IMG/VR virus record: IMGVR_UViG_2663763339_000005
Coordinates: 1-45,686 of that record
Origin: a virus
Taxonomy: Duplodnaviria > Heunggongvirae > Uroviricota > Caudoviricetes
Direction: 5' to 3' (one strand)
Length of the DNA: 45,686 bases
Below, in pieces: positions 18,835 to 36,174 of this stretch. Positions within the stretch are counted from its first letter, which is position 1; each line of letters begins with the position of its first letter. Both the position numbers and the translations under genes were made by a program. The notes below the pieces were generated by a model that ran no database searches, had not been told where the DNA came from, and saw only the letters and a program-made list of their open reading frames with translations.

Positions 18835-19050
18835 ATTTTTGCGGGTCCTTTCCGGCGATCCGACAGGTTACGGGGCGGCGACCTCGCGGGTTTTCGCTAT
18901 TTATGAAAATTTTCCGGTTTAAGGCGTTTCCGTTCTTCTTCGTCATAACTTAATGTTTTTATTTAAAATACCCTCTGAAAAGAAAGGAAACGACAGGTGC
19001 TGAAAGCGAGCTTTTTGGCCTCTGTCGTTTCCTTTCTCTGTTTTTGTCCG
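18835..19050 (+). other. Helper prophage cos site (cosQ-cosN-cosB); cosN 12-nt cohesive end GGGCGGCGACCT at 18863-18874
   Basis: Sequence gcgggtcctttccggcgatccgacaggttacgGGGCGGCGACCTcgcgggttttcgctatttatgaaaattttccggtttaagg... matches the remembered lambda genome ends; immediately upstream of Nu1. Confidence 0.93.
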
Positions 19051-19061
19051 TGGAATGAACA

Positions 19062-19581
19062 ATGGAAGTCAACAAAAAGCAGCTGGCTGACATTTTCGGT
19101 GCGAGTATCCGTACCATTCAGAACTGGCAGGAACAGGGAATGCCCGTTCTGCGAGGCGGTGGCAAGGGTAATGAGGTGCTTTATGACTCTGCCGCCGTCA
19201 TAAAATGGTATGCCGAAAGGGATGCTGAAATTGAGAACGAAAAGCTGCGCCGGGAAGTTGAAGAACTGCGGCAGGCCAGCGAGACAGATCTCCAGCCAGG
19301 GACTATTGAGTACGAACGCCATCGACTTACGCGTGCGCAGGCCGACGCACAGGAGCTGAAAAATGCCAGAGACTCCGCTGAAGTGGTGGAAACCGCATTC
19401 TGTACTTTCGTGCTGTCGCGGATCGCAGGTGAAATTGCCAGTATTCTCGACGGGATCCCCCTGTCGGTGCAGCGGCGTTTTCCGGAACTGGAAAACCGAC
19501 ATGTTGATTTCCTGAAACGGGATATCATCAAAGCCATGAACAAAGCAGCCGCGCTGGATGAACTGATACCGGGGTTGCTGA

Positions 19582-25005: not shown

Positions 25006-25281
25006 ATGTCGATTTACACAACCGCCCAGCTGCTGGCGGCAAATGAGCAGAAATTTAAGTTTGATCCGCTGTTTCTGCGTCTCTTTTTCCGTGAGAGCTA
25101 TCCCTTCACCACGGAGAAAGTCTATCTCTCACAAATTCCGGGACTGGTAAACATGGCGCTGTACGTTTCGCCGATTGTTTCCGGTGAGGTTATCCGTTCC
25201 CGTGGCGGATCCACCTCTGAATTTACACCGGGATATGTCAAGCCCAAGCACTTAGCATGGCTTTCTGAGGCTTTCGTGTAG
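25006..25281 (+). pseudogene. E: Major capsid protein E, 5' fragment (codons 1-81 intact, then 9 element-derived codons and stop), disrupted by insertion
   Basis: MSIYTTAQLLAANEQKFKFDPLFLRLFFRESYPFTTEKVYLSQIPGLVNMALYVSPIVSGEVIRSRGGSTSEFTPGYVKPKH matches lambda gpE N-terminus; divergence begins exactly after 25250. Confidence 0.92.
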
Positions 25282-26650: not shown

Positions 26651-26878
26651 ATGAAAAAAATGGCAATTGTTGATAAAAAGGGTCTGGAGTACATTCCTAA
26701 CATCGATCGTATGATCCGTGAGAAAGAATGTCGGGAGCTAACCACTCTTGCAAACAGCACACGCTGGAAGCTGGAGAAGGAAGGAAAATTTCCTAAGCGG
26801 ATCAAGATTGGTTCCACTGCTGTTGCATATCGTCTTTCAGAAGTGCAGGCATGGATTCGAGGTGAGTGGGTAGTTTAA
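26651..26878 (+). CDS. AlpA-like transcriptional regulator/excisionase
   Basis: 75 aa; ...RELTTLANSTRWKLEKEGKFPKRIKIGSTAVAYRLSEVQAWI is a typical AlpA HTH; directly downstream of integrase. Confidence 0.8.
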   Translation: MKKMAIVDKKGLEYIPNIDRMIREKECRELTTLANSTRWKLEKEGKFPKRIKIGSTAVAYRLSEVQAWIRGEWVV

Positions 26879-26904
26879 ATTATCTCAGAATAAAATATTA
26901 TGAA

Positions 26905-26938
26905 TTACTGATTTGAGAATTTGTACTCAAATCAGTAA
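26905..26938. terminator. Bidirectional hairpin between alpA and convergent membrane-protein gene
   Basis: TTACTGATTTGAG...CTCAAATCAGTAA 13-bp inverted repeat in AT-rich context. Confidence 0.5.
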
Positions 26939-26947
26939 TAACATTCT

Positions 26948-27484
26948 TTATAAGAGATTAAATCCAAATAAAGAGTAATCATATACCGGGGTGCATTGCA
27001 TCCCACTGAATATGCTGATGTTTTTTTCTGTTTCTATCCTTTTTTCAATAAGTTGTTGTATATTTTTACAGTACAATTTGTGTGTGATGTTATTATCGTA
27101 AGCCTGATATAGCAACGTCAATGTTGACGCTAGGAAACATACAGATAAAATTAAAATAATATATGCAGTTTTTTTATTTTTTGTCCATGATCTATTTGTT
27201 TGTGAAATATAAAGAATTCTGAGGTGGATAATGGTGAGAGACAATAGCAGGCCACTCAATAAAATAAGTATTGGGTTTGCGTATTTTATTAATGGTTGAG
27301 AGCAAAAAACTATTATAGCTCCTGTGACTGCGTATGAGAAAAAGGAGTGATTAAACTTCTTACTCCTTCTCTCAAGTATTTTAATTTCATCTTGTGTGGG
27401 GGTTTTAGATGCCTCTAATATAAGTTTATTGAATGTTTCTGTTATCTTGTTTTTTGTGTTTGTGGCTATTTTTTTTAGATTCAT
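26948..27484 (-). CDS. Hypothetical membrane protein (element cargo)
   Basis: 178 aa, very AT-rich, hydrophobic segments (AVTGAIIVFCSQPLI..., ILILLSGLLLSLTIIHL..., AYIILILSVCFLASTLTLL); opposite strand to core element genes. Confidence 0.5.
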   Translation of the reverse strand: MNLKKIATNTKNKITETFNKLILEASKTPTQDEIKILERRSKKFNHSFFSYAVTGAIIVFCSQPLIKYANPILILLSGLLLSLTIIHLRILYISQTNRSWTKNKKTAYIILILSVCFLASTLTLLYQAYDNNITHKLYCKNIQQLIEKRIETEKNISIFSGMQCTPVYDYSLFGFNLL

Positions 27485-27834
27485 AGCATTCTAACTCCCT
27501 TAACTTATTTATTACTTTCTCTTTATGATAAGAGAGGGGAATGACTTGGTAAAGTGATTTGTCATTAATAATGATAATCCTTGCGATAAATATTTCTGCA
27601 AGTTATTTATCTGTTTGTTGCTATCTTGTTAAGCGTTGGGTGTGGTTTATGTTTGGAGCGACTTTATTTAATCGTGATTTTATGGATTTATATTTATATC
27701 CTGTAAGATAAGCGCATGTTAGTTCAGGAGTAGTGTCAGATAAAATTATTCGGAGTAGAACTACCTTTTCTGTTTATTGCCAGTATTTACATAGCAATGC
27801 GCCGTAGTTACTCACATCACGGCGCTGATACTAA

Positions 27835-28137
27835 TTATTCAGATTCTTTGGCTTTACGCCGCTGGAGTTCTTCACGAGCGACGGCTACGAGTTGCCCGAT
27901 TTCCTCCGCTGCCTTGATGCCGATTTGTTCGACCTTAGCTAAGGCATCCAGTGAAGACACGAGGGGATTTTCTCCGCTTCCTTCTGCCTGGCGGCGGGCG
28001 ATCTCACCGCGCATGGCGGTTACTATGAATCCGGCGTTGCTTTCGCCGTCCAGTTTTACGGATTCCATGCCCTCCATAACATCGTGGGGAACCCTGATCG
28101 TTGTCATTTGCGATTTTGCATTTTTGTATACAGACAT
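27835..28137 (-). CDS. Putative ribbon-helix-helix transcriptional repressor of the element
   Basis: 100 aa; N-terminal TTIRVPHDVMEGMESVKL...GFIVTAMRGEIARRQ fits beta-strand/helix/helix RHH pattern; divergent from operon containing primase across an operator-rich region. Confidence 0.5.
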   Translation of the reverse strand: MSVYKNAKSQMTTIRVPHDVMEGMESVKLDGESNAGFIVTAMRGEIARRQAEGSGENPLVSSLDALAKVEQIGIKAAEEIGQLVAVAREELQRRKAKESE

Positions 28138-28139
28138 AG

Positions 28140-28345
28140 TTAATCACCAATTTGTTATGTGTATATCACTATACACAAAAGTGAGATATAAAAACACTTG
28201 CAATGTATATCACCACAATATAATGTATATCTCACATTATGGTAGCTATGTATCTCACAATGATCGATTCATAAAAACGACGAAACCCGGCAGTGCGCGA
28301 ACACTAACCGGGCTTCTAACCAAACCGTTAAACGAGGTAACGACT
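28140..28345. promoter_or_regulatory. Operator-rich divergent promoter region of the element
   Basis: Repeated TGTATATC(A/T)CAC-like motifs in both orientations (tgtgtatatcactatacaca, gtgagatata, tgtatatcacc, tgtatatctcac, tgtatctcac). Confidence 0.55.
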
Positions 28346-28711
28346 ATGGCTGGAACACAGCATACCCAAACTCACCCTAAATTTATATACATCTTTCTGG
28401 CGCTACATCGCGATCGCATAGCAGATGGAGCAACTACGGTACATGTAGCCGCTGACACGCTGGTTGATGCCCGCAAGATGGTTAAGGAGATGGGCTATAC
28501 TGCGGCTTTCTGGAAAGGGCGGGAAGAAAACACGCTGTTTATTCAGAAATGTGAAAACAATTTCATCTGGCGTTTTATCGCCCTGAGTACGGCACAACCG
28601 CGCGTGATTACCATCGAGGCCACCAGCGAACAGGAAGCCCGCCAGCAATCCCCAACTGGCTGCGTGATGATATTCGCCGCCCGTATTCGTCAGGAGGTGT
28701 GCCATGAATGA
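28346..28711 (+). CDS. Hypothetical protein, first gene of element rightward operon
   Basis: ORF 27797..28711 trimmed to Met 28346 preceded by GAGG; 121 aa; internally repeated small domain; function unknown. Confidence 0.45.
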   Translation: MAGTQHTQTHPKFIYIFLALHRDRIADGATTVHVAADTLVDARKMVKEMGYTAAFWKGREENTLFIQKCENNFIWRFIALSTAQPRVITIEATSEQEARQQSPTGCVMIFAARIRQEVCHE

Positions 28712-32014: not shown

Positions 32015-32231
32015 ATATTGCCAATAAAAAAAGGCCGGAAAAAATAAATTTTCCGGCATGCTACATAAATCCCGACCAAAGGGAGTGAAGATATTAACAC
32101 TAATTTTCCGCACTGAAGTTGTCACCCCAAAACTTTATACAACATTGCACTCGGTTGCATGTATTCGCATGACAAATATCGGTGATAGCATATATCCACA
32201 ATTATTTTTAATGAATGCAAAGAGGATGCGT

Positions 32232-33272
32232 ATGGTTGATTTATATTCGCCTACTCAGCTTGTACAGGTGGTTAATGCTGTAGATGTACAAAAACAACTA
32301 AATGCGTTGTTTACCAGTTTGTTTTTTACTCGCTCGGTAATGTTTGAATCGCGCGATATTATTCTTGATACAATCGACGATCCAAATATCCCAATTGCAG
32401 CGTTTTGTTCTCCTATGGTGGGTAGTAAAGTTTCACGTGACGAAGGGTACGAATCAAAAACAATTCGTCCAGGCTATATGAAGCCGAAAAGCAGCATTGA
32501 TCCAAATAAGTTAGCTGTGCGCCCTGCTGGTGTATCACCTGAGCAATACAATGCTTTTGGGGCGCGTAATATTAAAGTTAAACAGGCGATTGTAAATCAA
32601 GCTAAAGCTATTCGTGCACGTATTGAATGGCTTGCTGTTCAGGCAATCACAACGGGGAAAAATATCATTGAGGGCGATGGTATTGAACGTTATGAGCTGG
32701 ACTGGAATATTAAACCACAAAATATCATCACTCAGTCTGGCGGTGCTGAGTGGTCAGGTAAGGATAAAGAAACTTTTGATCCAAATGATGATATTGAGAG
32801 CTACGCAGAATTTAGTGAGGGCGTCACTAATATTATCATTATGGGCGGTAATGTATGGAAGAAATACCGTTCATTCAGAGCGATAAAAGAGGCTCTGGAT
32901 ACCCGTCGTGGTTCTAATTCCGAACTGGAAACGGCCCTTAAAGACCTTGGTGATTCGGTGAGTTTTAAAGGGTATATGGGCGATGTTGCGATTGTTGTTT
33001 ACAGCGGGCGTTATACCGACGAGGACGGAACAGAAAAACATTTCCTTGATCCTGATTTGATGGTGCTTGGCAATACGGCTCTTCAGGGGATTGTCGCCTA
33101 TGGCGGTATTCAGGATCCGGAGCTAATCCGAATGGGGCTGACTAAAGCCGAACTTGCACCGAAAAACTATATTGTGCCTGGTGATCCGGCTATTGAATAT
33201 GTGCAGACACATTCAGCACCACAGCCAATACCGGCCCGCATCAATCGTTTTGTTACCGTTCGCATTGGCTAA
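32232..33272 (+). CDS. Major capsid protein, lambda gpE family (element-encoded divergent paralogue)
   Basis: ORF 32058..33272; start Met 32232 preceded by AGAGGA; clear alignment to lambda E (ITQSGGAEWSGKDKETFDPNDDIESYAEF...NIIIMGGNVWKKYRSFRAIKEALDTRRGSNSELETALKDLG..YKG..GDVAIVVYSG); ~346 aa versus 341 for lambda E. Confidence 0.88.
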   Translation: MVDLYSPTQLVQVVNAVDVQKQLNALFTSLFFTRSVMFESRDIILDTIDDPNIPIAAFCSPMVGSKVSRDEGYESKTIRPGYMKPKSSIDPNKLAVRPAGVSPEQYNAFGARNIKVKQAIVNQAKAIRARIEWLAVQAITTGKNIIEGDGIERYELDWNIKPQNIITQSGGAEWSGKDKETFDPNDDIESYAEFSEGVTNIIIMGGNVWKKYRSFRAIKEALDTRRGSNSELETALKDLGDSVSFKGYMGDVAIVVYSGRYTDEDGTEKHFLDPDLMVLGNTALQGIVAYGGIQDPELIRMGLTKAELAPKNYIVPGDPAIEYVQTHSAPQPIPARINRFVTVRIG

Positions 33273-33634: not shown

Positions 33635-34018
33635 ATGCAGAATGATTACAATGACCTTAAGCCAATTGCCGAAATGATGTACCCGAATCAAGCTGTAGAG
33701 GAATTAAAAGCTATCGCTGACAAAATGTGTTTAAGCGAGCGCCTTGTTGATATGAATCAGGTGATGGAAATTACAACCCTGAGTCGTCGTACACTGCTAA
33801 ACCTTGAGGCTAGTGGAGAGTTCCCGGAGCGTGTGCAGGTTACGGAAGGGCGTAAGGCCTGGTATTTAAGTGAAGTGATCGACTGGATAAATAATATTCC
33901 TCGCGCTTCTGAATATTGCCGCGTACCTGTCCCAAAAAAGCCAGATGCGGCGCTATGCCTCAAGATTGAGCGTGTACGCCGCAATGCACGGGATGGTCGC
34001 TATAAGCTGATTGGTTGA
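33635..34018 (+). CDS. Small HTH protein adjacent to element cos (candidate packaging-redirection / Nu1-like DNA-binding factor)
   Basis: 127 aa; MNQVMEITTLSRRTLLNLEASGEFPERVQVTEGRKAWYLSEVIDWI is a MerR/AlpA-like winged HTH; ends just upstream of cos-like site. Confidence 0.45.
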   Translation: MQNDYNDLKPIAEMMYPNQAVEELKAIADKMCLSERLVDMNQVMEITTLSRRTLLNLEASGEFPERVQVTEGRKAWYLSEVIDWINNIPRASEYCRVPVPKKPDAALCLKIERVRRNARDGRYKLIG

Positions 34019-34029
34019 TGAAATTAGGG

Positions 34030-34250
34030 CCCGCTCTGGCTGGCGGGTCCTTTCCGGCGATCCAGGACGTTACGGGGCGTCAGGCGCGCAGATTCTTGCT
34101 ATTTATGACAATTTTCTGCGATTTGCCGTTTCTGTTCTTCTTCGTTGTAACTATATGTTATTAATGGAAATGCCACCTAAAAAGAAAGGAAATGGTAAGC
34201 GCTATTTTGAGCTAAAAACAGCTTAACCGTTTCCTTTCTCCAAAATTTAC
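34030..34250 (+). other. Element cos-like site (lambda-like cosQ, variant cosN GGGCGTCAGGCG at 34075-34086, cosB-like R/IHF elements)
   Basis: ggcgggtcctttccggcgatccaggacgttacgGGGCGTCAGGCGcgcagattcttgctatttatgacaattttctgcgatttgccgtttctgttcttcttcg...aaaaagaaaggaaatgg aligns block-by-block with the helper cos at 18840-19040. Confidence 0.8.
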
Positions 34251-34260
34251 TGAGGCGGCT

Positions 34261-34686
34261 ATGAATCCATGCGCAGAAGTCATGACAACTATCAAACTAA
34301 GCGGATCTTTAGCTTCTTTGTTCGCCAGAGAACATCAGCGCCTTATCGGTCCGACGCGTGAGGCATTAAGGGTATTATCAGCCACTATTCCGGGATTTGA
34401 GAAATTCATGAACACTAGCAAGGCTTGAGGACTCACTTTCGCCGTGTTTGTGGATAAAAATAATGTCGCGCAGGATGATCTCGATTTTCCAAATGGTGGT
34501 CGTACGATTCGAATTGTTCCGATCATTATGGGGAGTAAGCGTGCTGGTGTTCTGCAAACCATTCTTGGCGCTTTCTTGGTGGTTGGTGGTGTTCTGGGGG
34601 CAACGATAGGGCAAGCATGGAACGGTGGTGTGTGGAGCGGCAAGTATTTTCTATTGGCAGAAGCCCATTCCGCCAAGATAGGCTAG
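34261..34686 (+). pseudogene. Tail assembly protein I-like ORF interrupted by a single in-frame TGA (34426-34428)
   Basis: N-part MNPCAEVMTTIKLSGSLASLFAREHQRLIGPTREALRVLSATIPGFEKF and C-part ...RTIRIVPIIMGSKRAGVLQTILGAFLVVGG resemble helper gpI (LYGDLQRFGRRIDLRVKTGAEAIRALATQLPAFRQKL / AVIHIVPRVAGAKSGGVFQIVLGAAAIAG); same frame across the stop. Confidence 0.45.
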
Positions 34687-34781
34687 ACGTATAAGATCGG
34701 TTACAATCTATAAATCAGCTGTTGAATTATTGAATTTTAACCATATTTATCAGATGGACTTCATTCAAAAAGGTAACTTTG

Positions 34782-35468
34782 ATGGCCGGACAATTAGACG
34801 AAGCAGCAAAACAGATTTTGGGTACCTTACTGGCAGATTTTACAGATCGAGGGTTAACTGCACAGGATTTAAAAAATGGTTATGAAGGCCCGAACATCAA
34901 TGCGCTAGCTACTGCAGTATGCAACGTCGCTGATTTTACATCTGTAGATTTTGAAGTTGCCTTTGGCGATCTCGAAAAAAGCAAACTAATCAAAACTGGC
35001 CCCATGAAAATGTTCGATAATGATCACAATAGCTCTGTGATCATTATTGCTTCTTATAGCCTACGTGAATATGTTTATTTGACGGAGGCTGGATACAAGG
35101 AGTCCAGGAAAGTACCAAATCGCCCACAACGTGTTCAGCGTATAGTCAATAATCTAACGATCACCGGCGGACATTTCAGCAATACGCAATTAGGGCAGGG
35201 AGAGGTCGTTTCCCAAACCCAAAACATCACAAGCAGTTCCGATTCTGAAATAGTTGCTAAGCTGATTTCTATCATTGAAGAACAGGGGCAAGTAGTTAAC
35301 AGCGATCAACGTTCTGATATTGAAGCAGCTGTGGCAGCCGCTAATGAAGGTGATGGTAAAGAAGCGAAATCATTGCTGTCTAAAGTATGCGGTCCTGTTT
35401 GGGAGTCTGTGCAACCAGTAATATGGCCGATCATTGGTGAGTTGGTTAAGAAAGGGCTCGGGATTTAA
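34782..35468 (+). CDS. Hypothetical protein (element cargo, unknown function)
   Basis: ORF 34779..35468; ATG 34782 preceded by AGGT; 228 aa, acidic, no recognised family. Confidence 0.45.
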   Translation: MAGQLDEAAKQILGTLLADFTDRGLTAQDLKNGYEGPNINALATAVCNVADFTSVDFEVAFGDLEKSKLIKTGPMKMFDNDHNSSVIIIASYSLREYVYLTEAGYKESRKVPNRPQRVQRIVNNLTITGGHFSNTQLGQGEVVSQTQNITSSSDSEIVAKLISIIEEQGQVVNSDQRSDIEAAVAAANEGDGKEAKSLLSKVCGPVWESVQPVIWPIIGELVKKGLGI

Positions 35469-35660
35469 TTTAATAAATTCTAAAAGGGCTGTTTGGGTAG
35501 TATTTTTATGGGGCTCTTCAATTAAAAGGAGTCATAGGGTCAAACGATGTGCCTATGACTCCTGGATAAAGCCATCAGAGAATATTAGTGTTAACAATTT
35601 CTCTTCAGCCCTTGTTTATACGATGCCAGCTTCAGAACCGAATCAACGCTCATGCGATCT

Positions 35661-35954
35661 TTAGCATCTCGGTAATGACAGTAAGTTATTATTCCATCGA
35701 CCATCAGCATAAGTACGTATAAATTTCCGCCCTCCCCCTCCTGGATCAACGACACCTACATCAGCACGTTTGCCATAACTATCAGTGACATAGAAAGTAT
35801 GTAACTTGTTCTCAATTGAATTAACTACATCTGCCACAGTCCACTTACTTCCAGGGGGATTAAATTGAGGGCTTCCCACATGAGTAATGTGTTCATGAAG
35901 GGCGTTCGAACTGGAGAGAGTAATACAAGTTAATCGTACATCAACCATCTTCAA
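35661..35954 (-). CDS. Hypothetical small protein, possibly DUF3892-like (element cargo near right junction)
   Basis: 97 aa with ITHVG and NNLLSLPRC motifs recalled as DUF3892-like; opposite strand, AT-rich. Confidence 0.4.
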   Translation of the reverse strand: MKMVDVRLTCITLSSSNALHEHITHVGSPQFNPPGSKWTVADVVNSIENKLHTFYVTDSYGKRADVGVVDPGGGGRKFIRTYADGRWNNNLLSLPRC

Positions 35955-36174
35955 CTCCTTATTTACTGTGAAAAATCATAAGATACAGCATGTATCGAAA
36001 TACAGCAGGGTGAACAATTTCGATTTACGAGGACTTAGCAAAGTCTCTTTCTCTTAAACTGTGGGCTTGTATTGCAGGTTGTATTGCAACTGTAGCTAAG
36101 CAATATCAGTTGTAAGCTTTATTTCTTTTACAGTCAATCGTATAGCATCGTATTTGACTCATGTAGCCCAAGCA

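Follow-up and report, generated by a model that had tools for sequence, protein, structure and literature searches.

The 45,686-nucleotide stretch of IMG/VR record IMGVR_UViG_2663763339_000005 (Caudoviricetes; positions 1 to 45,686, analysed whole and hereafter the window) is a lambda-like prophage in which the major capsid gene E is split by a ~10.9 kb satellite element, and the segment of that element between its cos region and its right attachment arm (attR) is best explained as the exchangeable 3′ cargo slot of a helper-embedded phage-inducible chromosomal island (PICI) of the 11capE type. The slot carries three open reading frames (ORFs): what is most likely the decaying remnant of a tail tip assembly gene I (the gpI-like ORF), interrupted by an in-frame stop; ORF2, a conserved mobile gene that is a candidate single-gene anti-phage system; and, on the opposite strand, a DUF3892 gene (Table 1). 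A probability of roughly 0.6 is placed on this explanation as a whole, covering the slot, the dead gpI remnant, the defence role of ORF2 and the reading of the DUF3892 gene together. The original prediction, made by a model from the sequence alone, had described unassigned satellite-end cargo of possible defence or helper-interference function, and the three ORFs and the in-frame TGA lie where it had placed them (ATG 34261; TGA 34426–34428; ORF2 from 34782; the third ORF on the minus strand). Overall, the segment proved mostly ordinary, with ORF2 as the one testable lead.

A variable cargo slot in a helper-embedded satellite

A 10-bp repeat, AGCCCAAGCA, flanks the element and marks where the 5′ part of helper gene E stops (...GYVKPKH, at the attL copy) and the 3′ part restarts (...PKHEVNPQMTLRR, from 36165). 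Its genes are co-oriented with helper gene E and encode an integrase, a primase, SSB, its own E-like capsid and D-like decoration proteins and AlpA, with the cos region following after these. The published zone order, from integration (int, AlpA/helix-turn-helix [HTH]) through a dynamic zone and replication (primase, SSB) to the late genes, was recovered, as judged from the Prokaryotic Genome Annotation Pipeline (PGAP) annotation of a 99.8% identical locus (L001) and from Pfam matches in the window. The element is a helper-embedded PICI of the 11capE type, matching Eco567.11capE at site E:Phage_cap_E:80, and the element type is therefore already known (PMC10111431; Tommasini, Mageeney & Williams 2023), which the original prediction had missed. 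The parts of that paper that treat Eco567.11capE give it a 10-bp identity block and, searched by term, contain no discussion of cos-to-attR cargo, gene I, ORF2 or DUF3892.

Both borders that had been drawn for the segment stood up, on the right at the attR core and on the left at the element cos, which aligns end to end with the helper cos upstream of Nu1 (window 18860–19075) and also with the AlpA–Nu1 spacers of Citrobacter and Klebsiella relatives. The 12-nt cosN equivalents of element and helper (34075–34086 and 18880–18891, both approximate) differ at 5 of 12 positions (GGGCGTCAGGCG versus GGGCGGCGACCT).

The window was compared with three E. coli sister elements, two of which (EC4 and VCSW7) were aligned to it by blastn. 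Both share 98% identity with the window as far as 34194/34241 and 93–97% from ~36148/36154 onward, with no match between these points, and four cargo sets were found across the near-identical E. coli backbones (Table 1). The abortive-infection gene of VCSW7 was recognised both by PADLOC (2.4e-22) and by Pfam Abi_C (1.7e-23). With both flanks near-identical and unrelated genes between them, one of a known defence type, the proposal of accessory cargo at a satellite end was supported. Of 5426 complete E. coli genomes, 16 carry the window cargo itself with ≥99.7% identity, while ~400 E. coli genomes matched the query, mostly at the AlpA/cos end alone; a 5.8-kb megablast search for slot contents returned chiefly helper-prophage matches and gained one further sister element. 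Cargo appears to enter and leave the slot via recombination with other satellites. The 5′ and 3′ ends of PICIs are reported to be immune hotspots (He et al. 2024, PMC11364771), and so are the slots of P4 and P2 (NAR 2026, PMC13586616). A literature search by RefSeq accession or PHROG id of the three products found no paper.

Table 1. Coordinates of the slot, its borders and its contents, with the cargo of sister elements. Positions refer to the window unless a locus is named.
Feature	Position	Strand	Description
Element cos region	34019–34241	+	cosN equivalent at ~34075–34086, then cosB-like repeats; left border of the slot
Variable accessory slot	34242–36147	.	Between cosB and the attR arm; from blastn against L002 and L003
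gpI-like ORF, most likely a pseudogene	34261–34689	+	5′ 125 codons of a satellite-borne tail tip assembly gene I, then 16 unrelated codons
ORF2	34782–35468	+	228 aa; N-terminal winged-helix, conserved linker, C-terminal helical domain; candidate single-gene defence
Probable DUF3892 terminator	35528–35562	−	11-bp stem and 13-nt loop, then TTTTAATT on the minus strand; read from sequence
DUF3892 gene	35661–35948	−	95 aa from ATG 35948; AAGGAG ribosome-binding site upstream
attR identity block, AGCCCAAGCA	36165–36174	.	attL copy at 25241–25250; 3′ part of helper gene E resumes here
Window-type cargo			gpI remnant, ORF2, DUF3892 (minus strand)
EC4 cargo	L002 11503–12819		438-aa protein without family match
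VCSW7 cargo	L003 11950–12941		AbiJ/Abi_C-type abortive-infection gene and a small 61-aa ORF
A37 cargo	L048 2163–3579		Nu1 small terminase and DUF2971 gene

ORF2 as a candidate defence gene

ORF2 had been listed from a TTG (34779–35468, 229 aa), but its homologues and PGAP use the ATG at 34782, which gives the 228 aa of the original prediction; the protein is acidic, as had been described, though only mildly (isoelectric point, 4.87). There are 176 full-length homologues in Enterobacterales, Oxalobacter and Pseudomonas, nearly all of ~228 aa among the matches listed, and an alignment of 36 members with identities down to 56% retains 46 invariant columns. Given 176 homologues of ORF2 and 96 of the DUF3892 protein, both are true conserved genes and not chance ORFs. 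The conserved mobile unit comprises ORF2 and ~40 bp upstream of it (34739–35475). ORF2 is the last gene before attR in a Klebsiella satellite of the E/D type, in a Yersinia satellite of the capsid-forming type (with HK97-type portal, protease and terminase genes) and in a Pectobacterium satellite, while P2-like prophages of E. coli have it between gpD and ogr.

The AlphaFold2 model of ORF2 (predicted local distance difference test [pLDDT], 76.9) consists of an N-terminal winged-helix domain (residues 8–109), a linker of low confidence that is nonetheless conserved in sequence (with invariant residues around I128, G130/G131, F133 and Q137/L138) and a C-terminal helical domain. When 1.84 billion representative proteins were searched by profile, 174 relatives were recovered, and several distant ones carry the N-terminal domain (E ~1e-23 to 1e-25) joined to a TIR, a cytidine deaminase or a GGDEF/Cas10-palm domain; the TIR domain of a fused relative also matches PADLOC PDC-S66 (5e-50) and ThsB. 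Defence proteins are typically marked by an N-terminal module with swappable immune-type effectors and by residence in mobile-element hotspots. Because ORF2 shares its N-module with interchangeable effectors of this kind and resides in such hotspots, it is a credible defence candidate, and the suggestion that the segment holds defence genes was reasonable for ORF2. Most likely, as far as context and domain architecture can predict, ORF2 is a single-gene anti-phage system. It would be a self-contained mobile gene of the single-protein abortive-infection type, in which the winged-helix domain would sense a phage-derived cue and the helical domain would act as the effector. A broader and more tentative reading, held at somewhat less than even odds, is that ORF2 represents a new widespread single-gene anti-phage system, which several kinds of satellite and P2-like prophages would carry to shield the host or helper against competing phages, its N-terminal domain being an unnamed sensing module common to TIR, deaminase and cyclase proteins, with the DUF3892 gene possibly a second, independent defence or regulatory gene.

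Several results weigh against the explanation as a whole. For ORF2, neither Pfam nor NCBIfam gave a significant match, tblastn found it in none of 50,697 deposited phage genomes, and nothing similar in structure or sequence points to an effector activity of its C-terminal domain. PADLOC-DB 2.0.0 returned no family at E ≤ 0.1 for the gpI-like product, ORF2, the DUF3892 protein or a 71-aa ORF across cos. A scan of the slot for sigma-70 promoters and terminators found fewer sites than in shuffled controls and no promoter-like sites on the plus strand. The gpI-like gene exists elsewhere in an intact short form (L047, below), which makes it possible that the truncated protein had a function prior to the nonsense mutation. 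Finally, the defence assignment of ORF2 draws on genomic context and domain fusions only, and a winged-helix domain would fit a transcription regulator equally well. That ORF2 is a DNA-binding repressor or activator of satellite, helper or host genes and not a defence protein is nevertheless unlikely, as it travels as a lone cassette between E/D-type PICIs, capsid-forming-type PICIs and P2-like prophages, always at accessory positions and without a conserved neighbouring target, and as the fusion of its N-terminal domain to TIR, deaminase and cyclase effectors is an architecture of the defence and not the regulator type.

The UniRef name of one homologue (P0199) would make ORF2 an AbiTii protein. 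This was rejected, as none of the 36 aligned members, P0199 included, matched the AbiTii model in a check that listed the top 25 families at E ≤ 1. In one Klebsiella genome (L011 6165–7514), a PD-T7-3-like gene (PADLOC, 6.7e-15) comes after an ORF2-bearing satellite and a P2/186-like prophage comes next, an arrangement that looks like a tandem at one site.

The DUF3892 gene and its relation to ORF2

The third ORF had been listed as 35661–35954 on the minus strand (97 aa from a TTG); its likely start is ATG 35948. Its description as DUF3892-like was correct (Pfam PF13031; 52.3 bits against a cut-off of 22.3, profile positions 3–71 of 71), and PGAP annotates the gene in L001. The AlphaFold2 model has a pLDDT of 86.2 and no close solved structure. 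The exact 95-aa protein occurs in 2990 index blocks, with the same context in all eight places among the matches listed. Homologues with 73–83% identity are carried by a P1-like phage-plasmid, by the early region of an Enterobacter lambdoid prophage, where an NA37-family gene follows, and by a Salmonella element, where a DUF3892–FRG pair (DUF3892 first) lies beside att-like sequence and a Nu1 pseudogene at what is read as an equivalent slot. Elsewhere the gene stands first in small operons with variable partners; in the window it stands alone. Across 32 homologues down to 47% identity, C8, H18, H23 and C95 are invariant or nearly so, which suggests a predicted metal-binding site.

The DUF3892 gene would be transcribed separately from the minus strand and has a ribosome-binding site of its own as well as a probable terminator hairpin; the terminator scan takes loops of 3–8 nt only, hence this hairpin was not listed by it, and its sole Rfam match is at chance level. 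The family is predicted to be linked to defence (Burroughs & Aravind 2020, as cited in bioRxiv 10.1101/2022.04.27.489752), and no experiment on a role in conflict systems was found in the literature. The gene probably stems from the same conflict-related gene pool.

ORF2 and the DUF3892 gene could instead act jointly as a two-gene system, since they are adjacent and convergent in the window and adjacent again, though divergent, in a Raoultella element at a UDG/rpoD site (69% and 90% identity). Such a partnership is improbable. Each gene is also found without the other: ORF2 in Klebsiella, Yersinia, Pectobacterium and P2-like contexts, and DUF3892, partnered there by FRG or NA37, in Salmonella, phage-plasmid and Enterobacter contexts. 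The two genes also have different orientations and do not share a transcript. Because they are usually found apart, they are not regarded as an obligate pair. Quite improbable, too, is that the entire slot is neutral, hitch-hiking DNA without selected function. One of the three ORFs is demonstrably dead, known defence systems found no match, and all E. coli copies are ≥99.7% identical and so uninformative on selection, but ORF2 is kept at full length with its invariant columns down to 56% identity, and the DUF3892 protein, in homologues down to 47% identity, keeps 12 columns invariant and 20 nearly so.

The gpI-like ORF as a probable pseudogene of gene I

Read in frame 1 from ATG 34261 to the TAG at 34687–34689, the gpI-like ORF has one in-frame TGA, at codon 56. 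Its 141-aa product, read through that stop, scores 21.3 bits against Pfam PF06805 Lambda_tail_I, under the gathering score of 23.8. Despite this sub-threshold score, homology to tail tip protein I is clear because the product matches PHROG 32 ‘tail assembly protein’ (2e-32) and shares 60% identity with HK97 gp21 (gene I) over residues 6–101, spanning the stop. The nearest full-length homologues (203 aa; 91–94% identity over the first ~125 residues) lie in Citrobacter satellites and not in phage tail modules, a relationship overlooked in the original prediction; those satellites are arranged as primase, E-like capsid, D-like, AlpA, cos, Nu1, gene I, two small genes and an attR adjoining UDG/rpoD. 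A Pectobacterium satellite with a different capsid module has a full-length gene I (205 aa) with ORF2 directly after it. The match to gene I of one Citrobacter satellite (L005) is confined to 34259–34635 and reaches 91.2% nucleotide identity, against 75% for the core genes, so the gene I piece probably arrived by recombination and not by vertical descent. Capture of the fragment from the resident helper was rejected, with 33% identity to helper gpI compared to 94% to the Citrobacter satellite gene I over the first ~125 residues. The metagenomic contig L047 (P0001) carries an intact short form of gpI with the same 16-codon tail; its last ~190 nt equal the window except for an A/G site at 34622, while the part upstream of these has ~88% identity and different sequence lies before it, a pattern that implies a crossover inside the gene. 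In a further backbone (L049), gene I is cut at another point.

The TGA position is CGA in HK97 I and Arg in seven of seven aligned homologues, so the stop is due to a single C-to-T change. It is found in all nine of the other assemblies checked and is confined to the ≥99.7% identical E. coli copies. The original prediction had offered a pseudogene, recoding or readthrough, or a truncated tail-tip modifier, and the first of these stood. Programmed recoding or selenocysteine insertion was rejected, as the stop is not conserved in homologues and no structured RNA lies downstream: the fold of 34420–34500 (−14.2 kcal/mol; shuffle mean, −17.9; z = +1.33) is less structured than shuffled sequence, with no selenocysteine insertion sequence (SECIS)-like fold or Rfam match downstream of the TGA. 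The C-terminal half is lost as well. PDB 9e7m models lambda gpI residues 133–222, a region that the fragment lacks, and an uninterrupted ORF of ~200–223 aa with that C-terminal domain was not found. The ratio of nonsynonymous to synonymous substitution rates against the Citrobacter gene (0.11) indicates that most divergence accrued under constraint and that inactivation was probably recent. Most likely, then, the gpI-like ORF is a non-functional pseudogene.

The window allele has no Nu1 of its own, the sister element A37 has one, and in the cos alignment the gpI-like start codon occupies the position of the Nu1 start in the helper. Related satellites have the order cos, Nu1 and full-length gene I; relative to these, the window allele would have lost Nu1, had gene I cut after codon 125 and undergone the CGA to TGA change at codon 56. 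The remnant may persist as a patch of homology for inter-satellite crossovers. That it still functions, through TGA readthrough or re-initiation at GTG 34444 to yield a truncated gpI with a dominant-negative effect on helper tail-tip assembly, is highly improbable: an intact ribosome-binding site (GAGG) and ATG, the intact short form in another lineage, a hydrophobic segment kept in the 3′ part (maximum 19-residue Kyte-Doolittle, 1.93) and tail-assembly interference being a known satellite and prophage strategy (PMC11364771) would allow for it, but the replaced Arg codon is conserved, the RNA downstream is poorly structured, the region equal to 9e7m residues 133–222 is missing, sister elements are entirely without the ORF, and 12 nt separate GTG 34444 from the end of the GAGGA overlapping the TGA, a long spacing for a ribosome-binding site.

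Intact gene I copies of 203–205 aa occur in Citrobacter (L005 5486–7610) and Pectobacterium (L030 6055–7693) chromosomal satellites at UDG/rpoD, beside a small terminase or an HTH gene, in satellites that are without tail genes. The Citrobacter gene I is followed by a 116-aa protein with weak similarity to tail assembly chaperones (Phage_TAC_4, E = 0.0011). The 71-aa ORF annotated by PGAP (window 34011–34226) spans the AlpA stop and the cos region, overlapping cosN and cosB; only its first 37 residues match PHROG 11159, and it is unlikely to be a gene.

Other features of the element

A second variable slot lies near the integrase (window 26871–28555), with sister identity ending at 26870 and returning at 28556. 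It holds a 178-aa ORF (minus strand, 26948–27484), which has only weak, sub-threshold matches to membrane-protein families, and a 304-aa ORF (27797–28711); neither has a significant Pfam match or a PADLOC match. Sister elements hold DUF2971 and SWIM genes in this slot instead. The element capsid gene was called mechanically as an ORF of 404 aa (32058–33272), while relatives and PGAP give 346 aa, with a start at ~32232. In strain 1218KP (L001 288–1450 and 4004–4984), the helper head region upstream of D is broken by IS3 and the satellite carries IS5; its cargo is nevertheless identical to that of the window. The IS3 disruption and the IS5 suggest that the 1218KP helper–satellite composite is probably immobile.

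Discussion

With the tail gene and its in-frame stop accounted for as an ordinary decayed remnant, the recoding story drops away. The element type and the hotspot concept were already known; the dead satellite-borne gene I remnant and the modular candidate defence gene ORF2 are a modest new addition. The remnant illustrates how cargo is swapped through crossovers in leftover conserved late-gene sequence, and ORF2 is a compact, highly conserved candidate that is mobile, in Enterobacterales and Pseudomonas, among the ends of satellites and the accessory sites of prophages. Should ORF2 protect against phages, the catalogue of defences would gain a new sensor module, and helper-embedded satellites would contribute immunity as other PICIs and P4 do.

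Compared to Eco567.11capE (PMC10111431), the window element shares a size of ~11 kb, a position inside and co-oriented with a lambda-like capsid gene E, a 10-bp att block, and an integrase, AlpA, primase and E-like capsid gene of its own; the dynamic ‘Late zone’ of captured phage late genes is a further likeness. Unlike that type, the window allele has lost Nu1 and carries a decayed gene I. The N-terminal ~100 residues of the gpI-like ORF are homologous to the lambda/HK97 tail tip assembly protein I (Lambda_tail_I; PDB 8iyk, 9e7m), but in contrast to the phage gene, the ORF is cut after residue ~125, has an internal stop and lies beside a satellite cos rather than in a tail module. In P2 and P4 elements, pseudogenes of defence systems are reported to be rare (PMC13586616), and the pseudogene of the window differs in being the remnant of a structural gene and not of a defence gene. 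The DUF3892 protein, a clear Pfam member on a mobile element, resembles the DUF3892 proteins predicted in conflict systems (bioRxiv 10.1101/2022.04.27.489752; Lipocone preprint, 10.1101/2025.01.14.632903).

The slot as a whole resembles the immune hotspots at PICI ends and in P4 and P2 (PMC11364771; Rousset et al. 2022, PMC9122126; PMC13586616) in its fixed place beside cos and att, in contents that swap fast between near-identical elements, and in holding known Abi-type genes along with many unknowns; unlike the described hotspots, the window allele is without any match to a described system. Though the C-terminal domain of ORF2 itself, unlike the effectors of the single-protein sensor–effector defences (TIR-domain ThsB-like proteins, PDC-S66 candidates and deaminase-based systems), is a small helical module without a recognised enzymatic fold, ORF2 is like these defences in its hotspot location and in having an N-terminal domain that is joined, in its relatives, to precisely such effectors.

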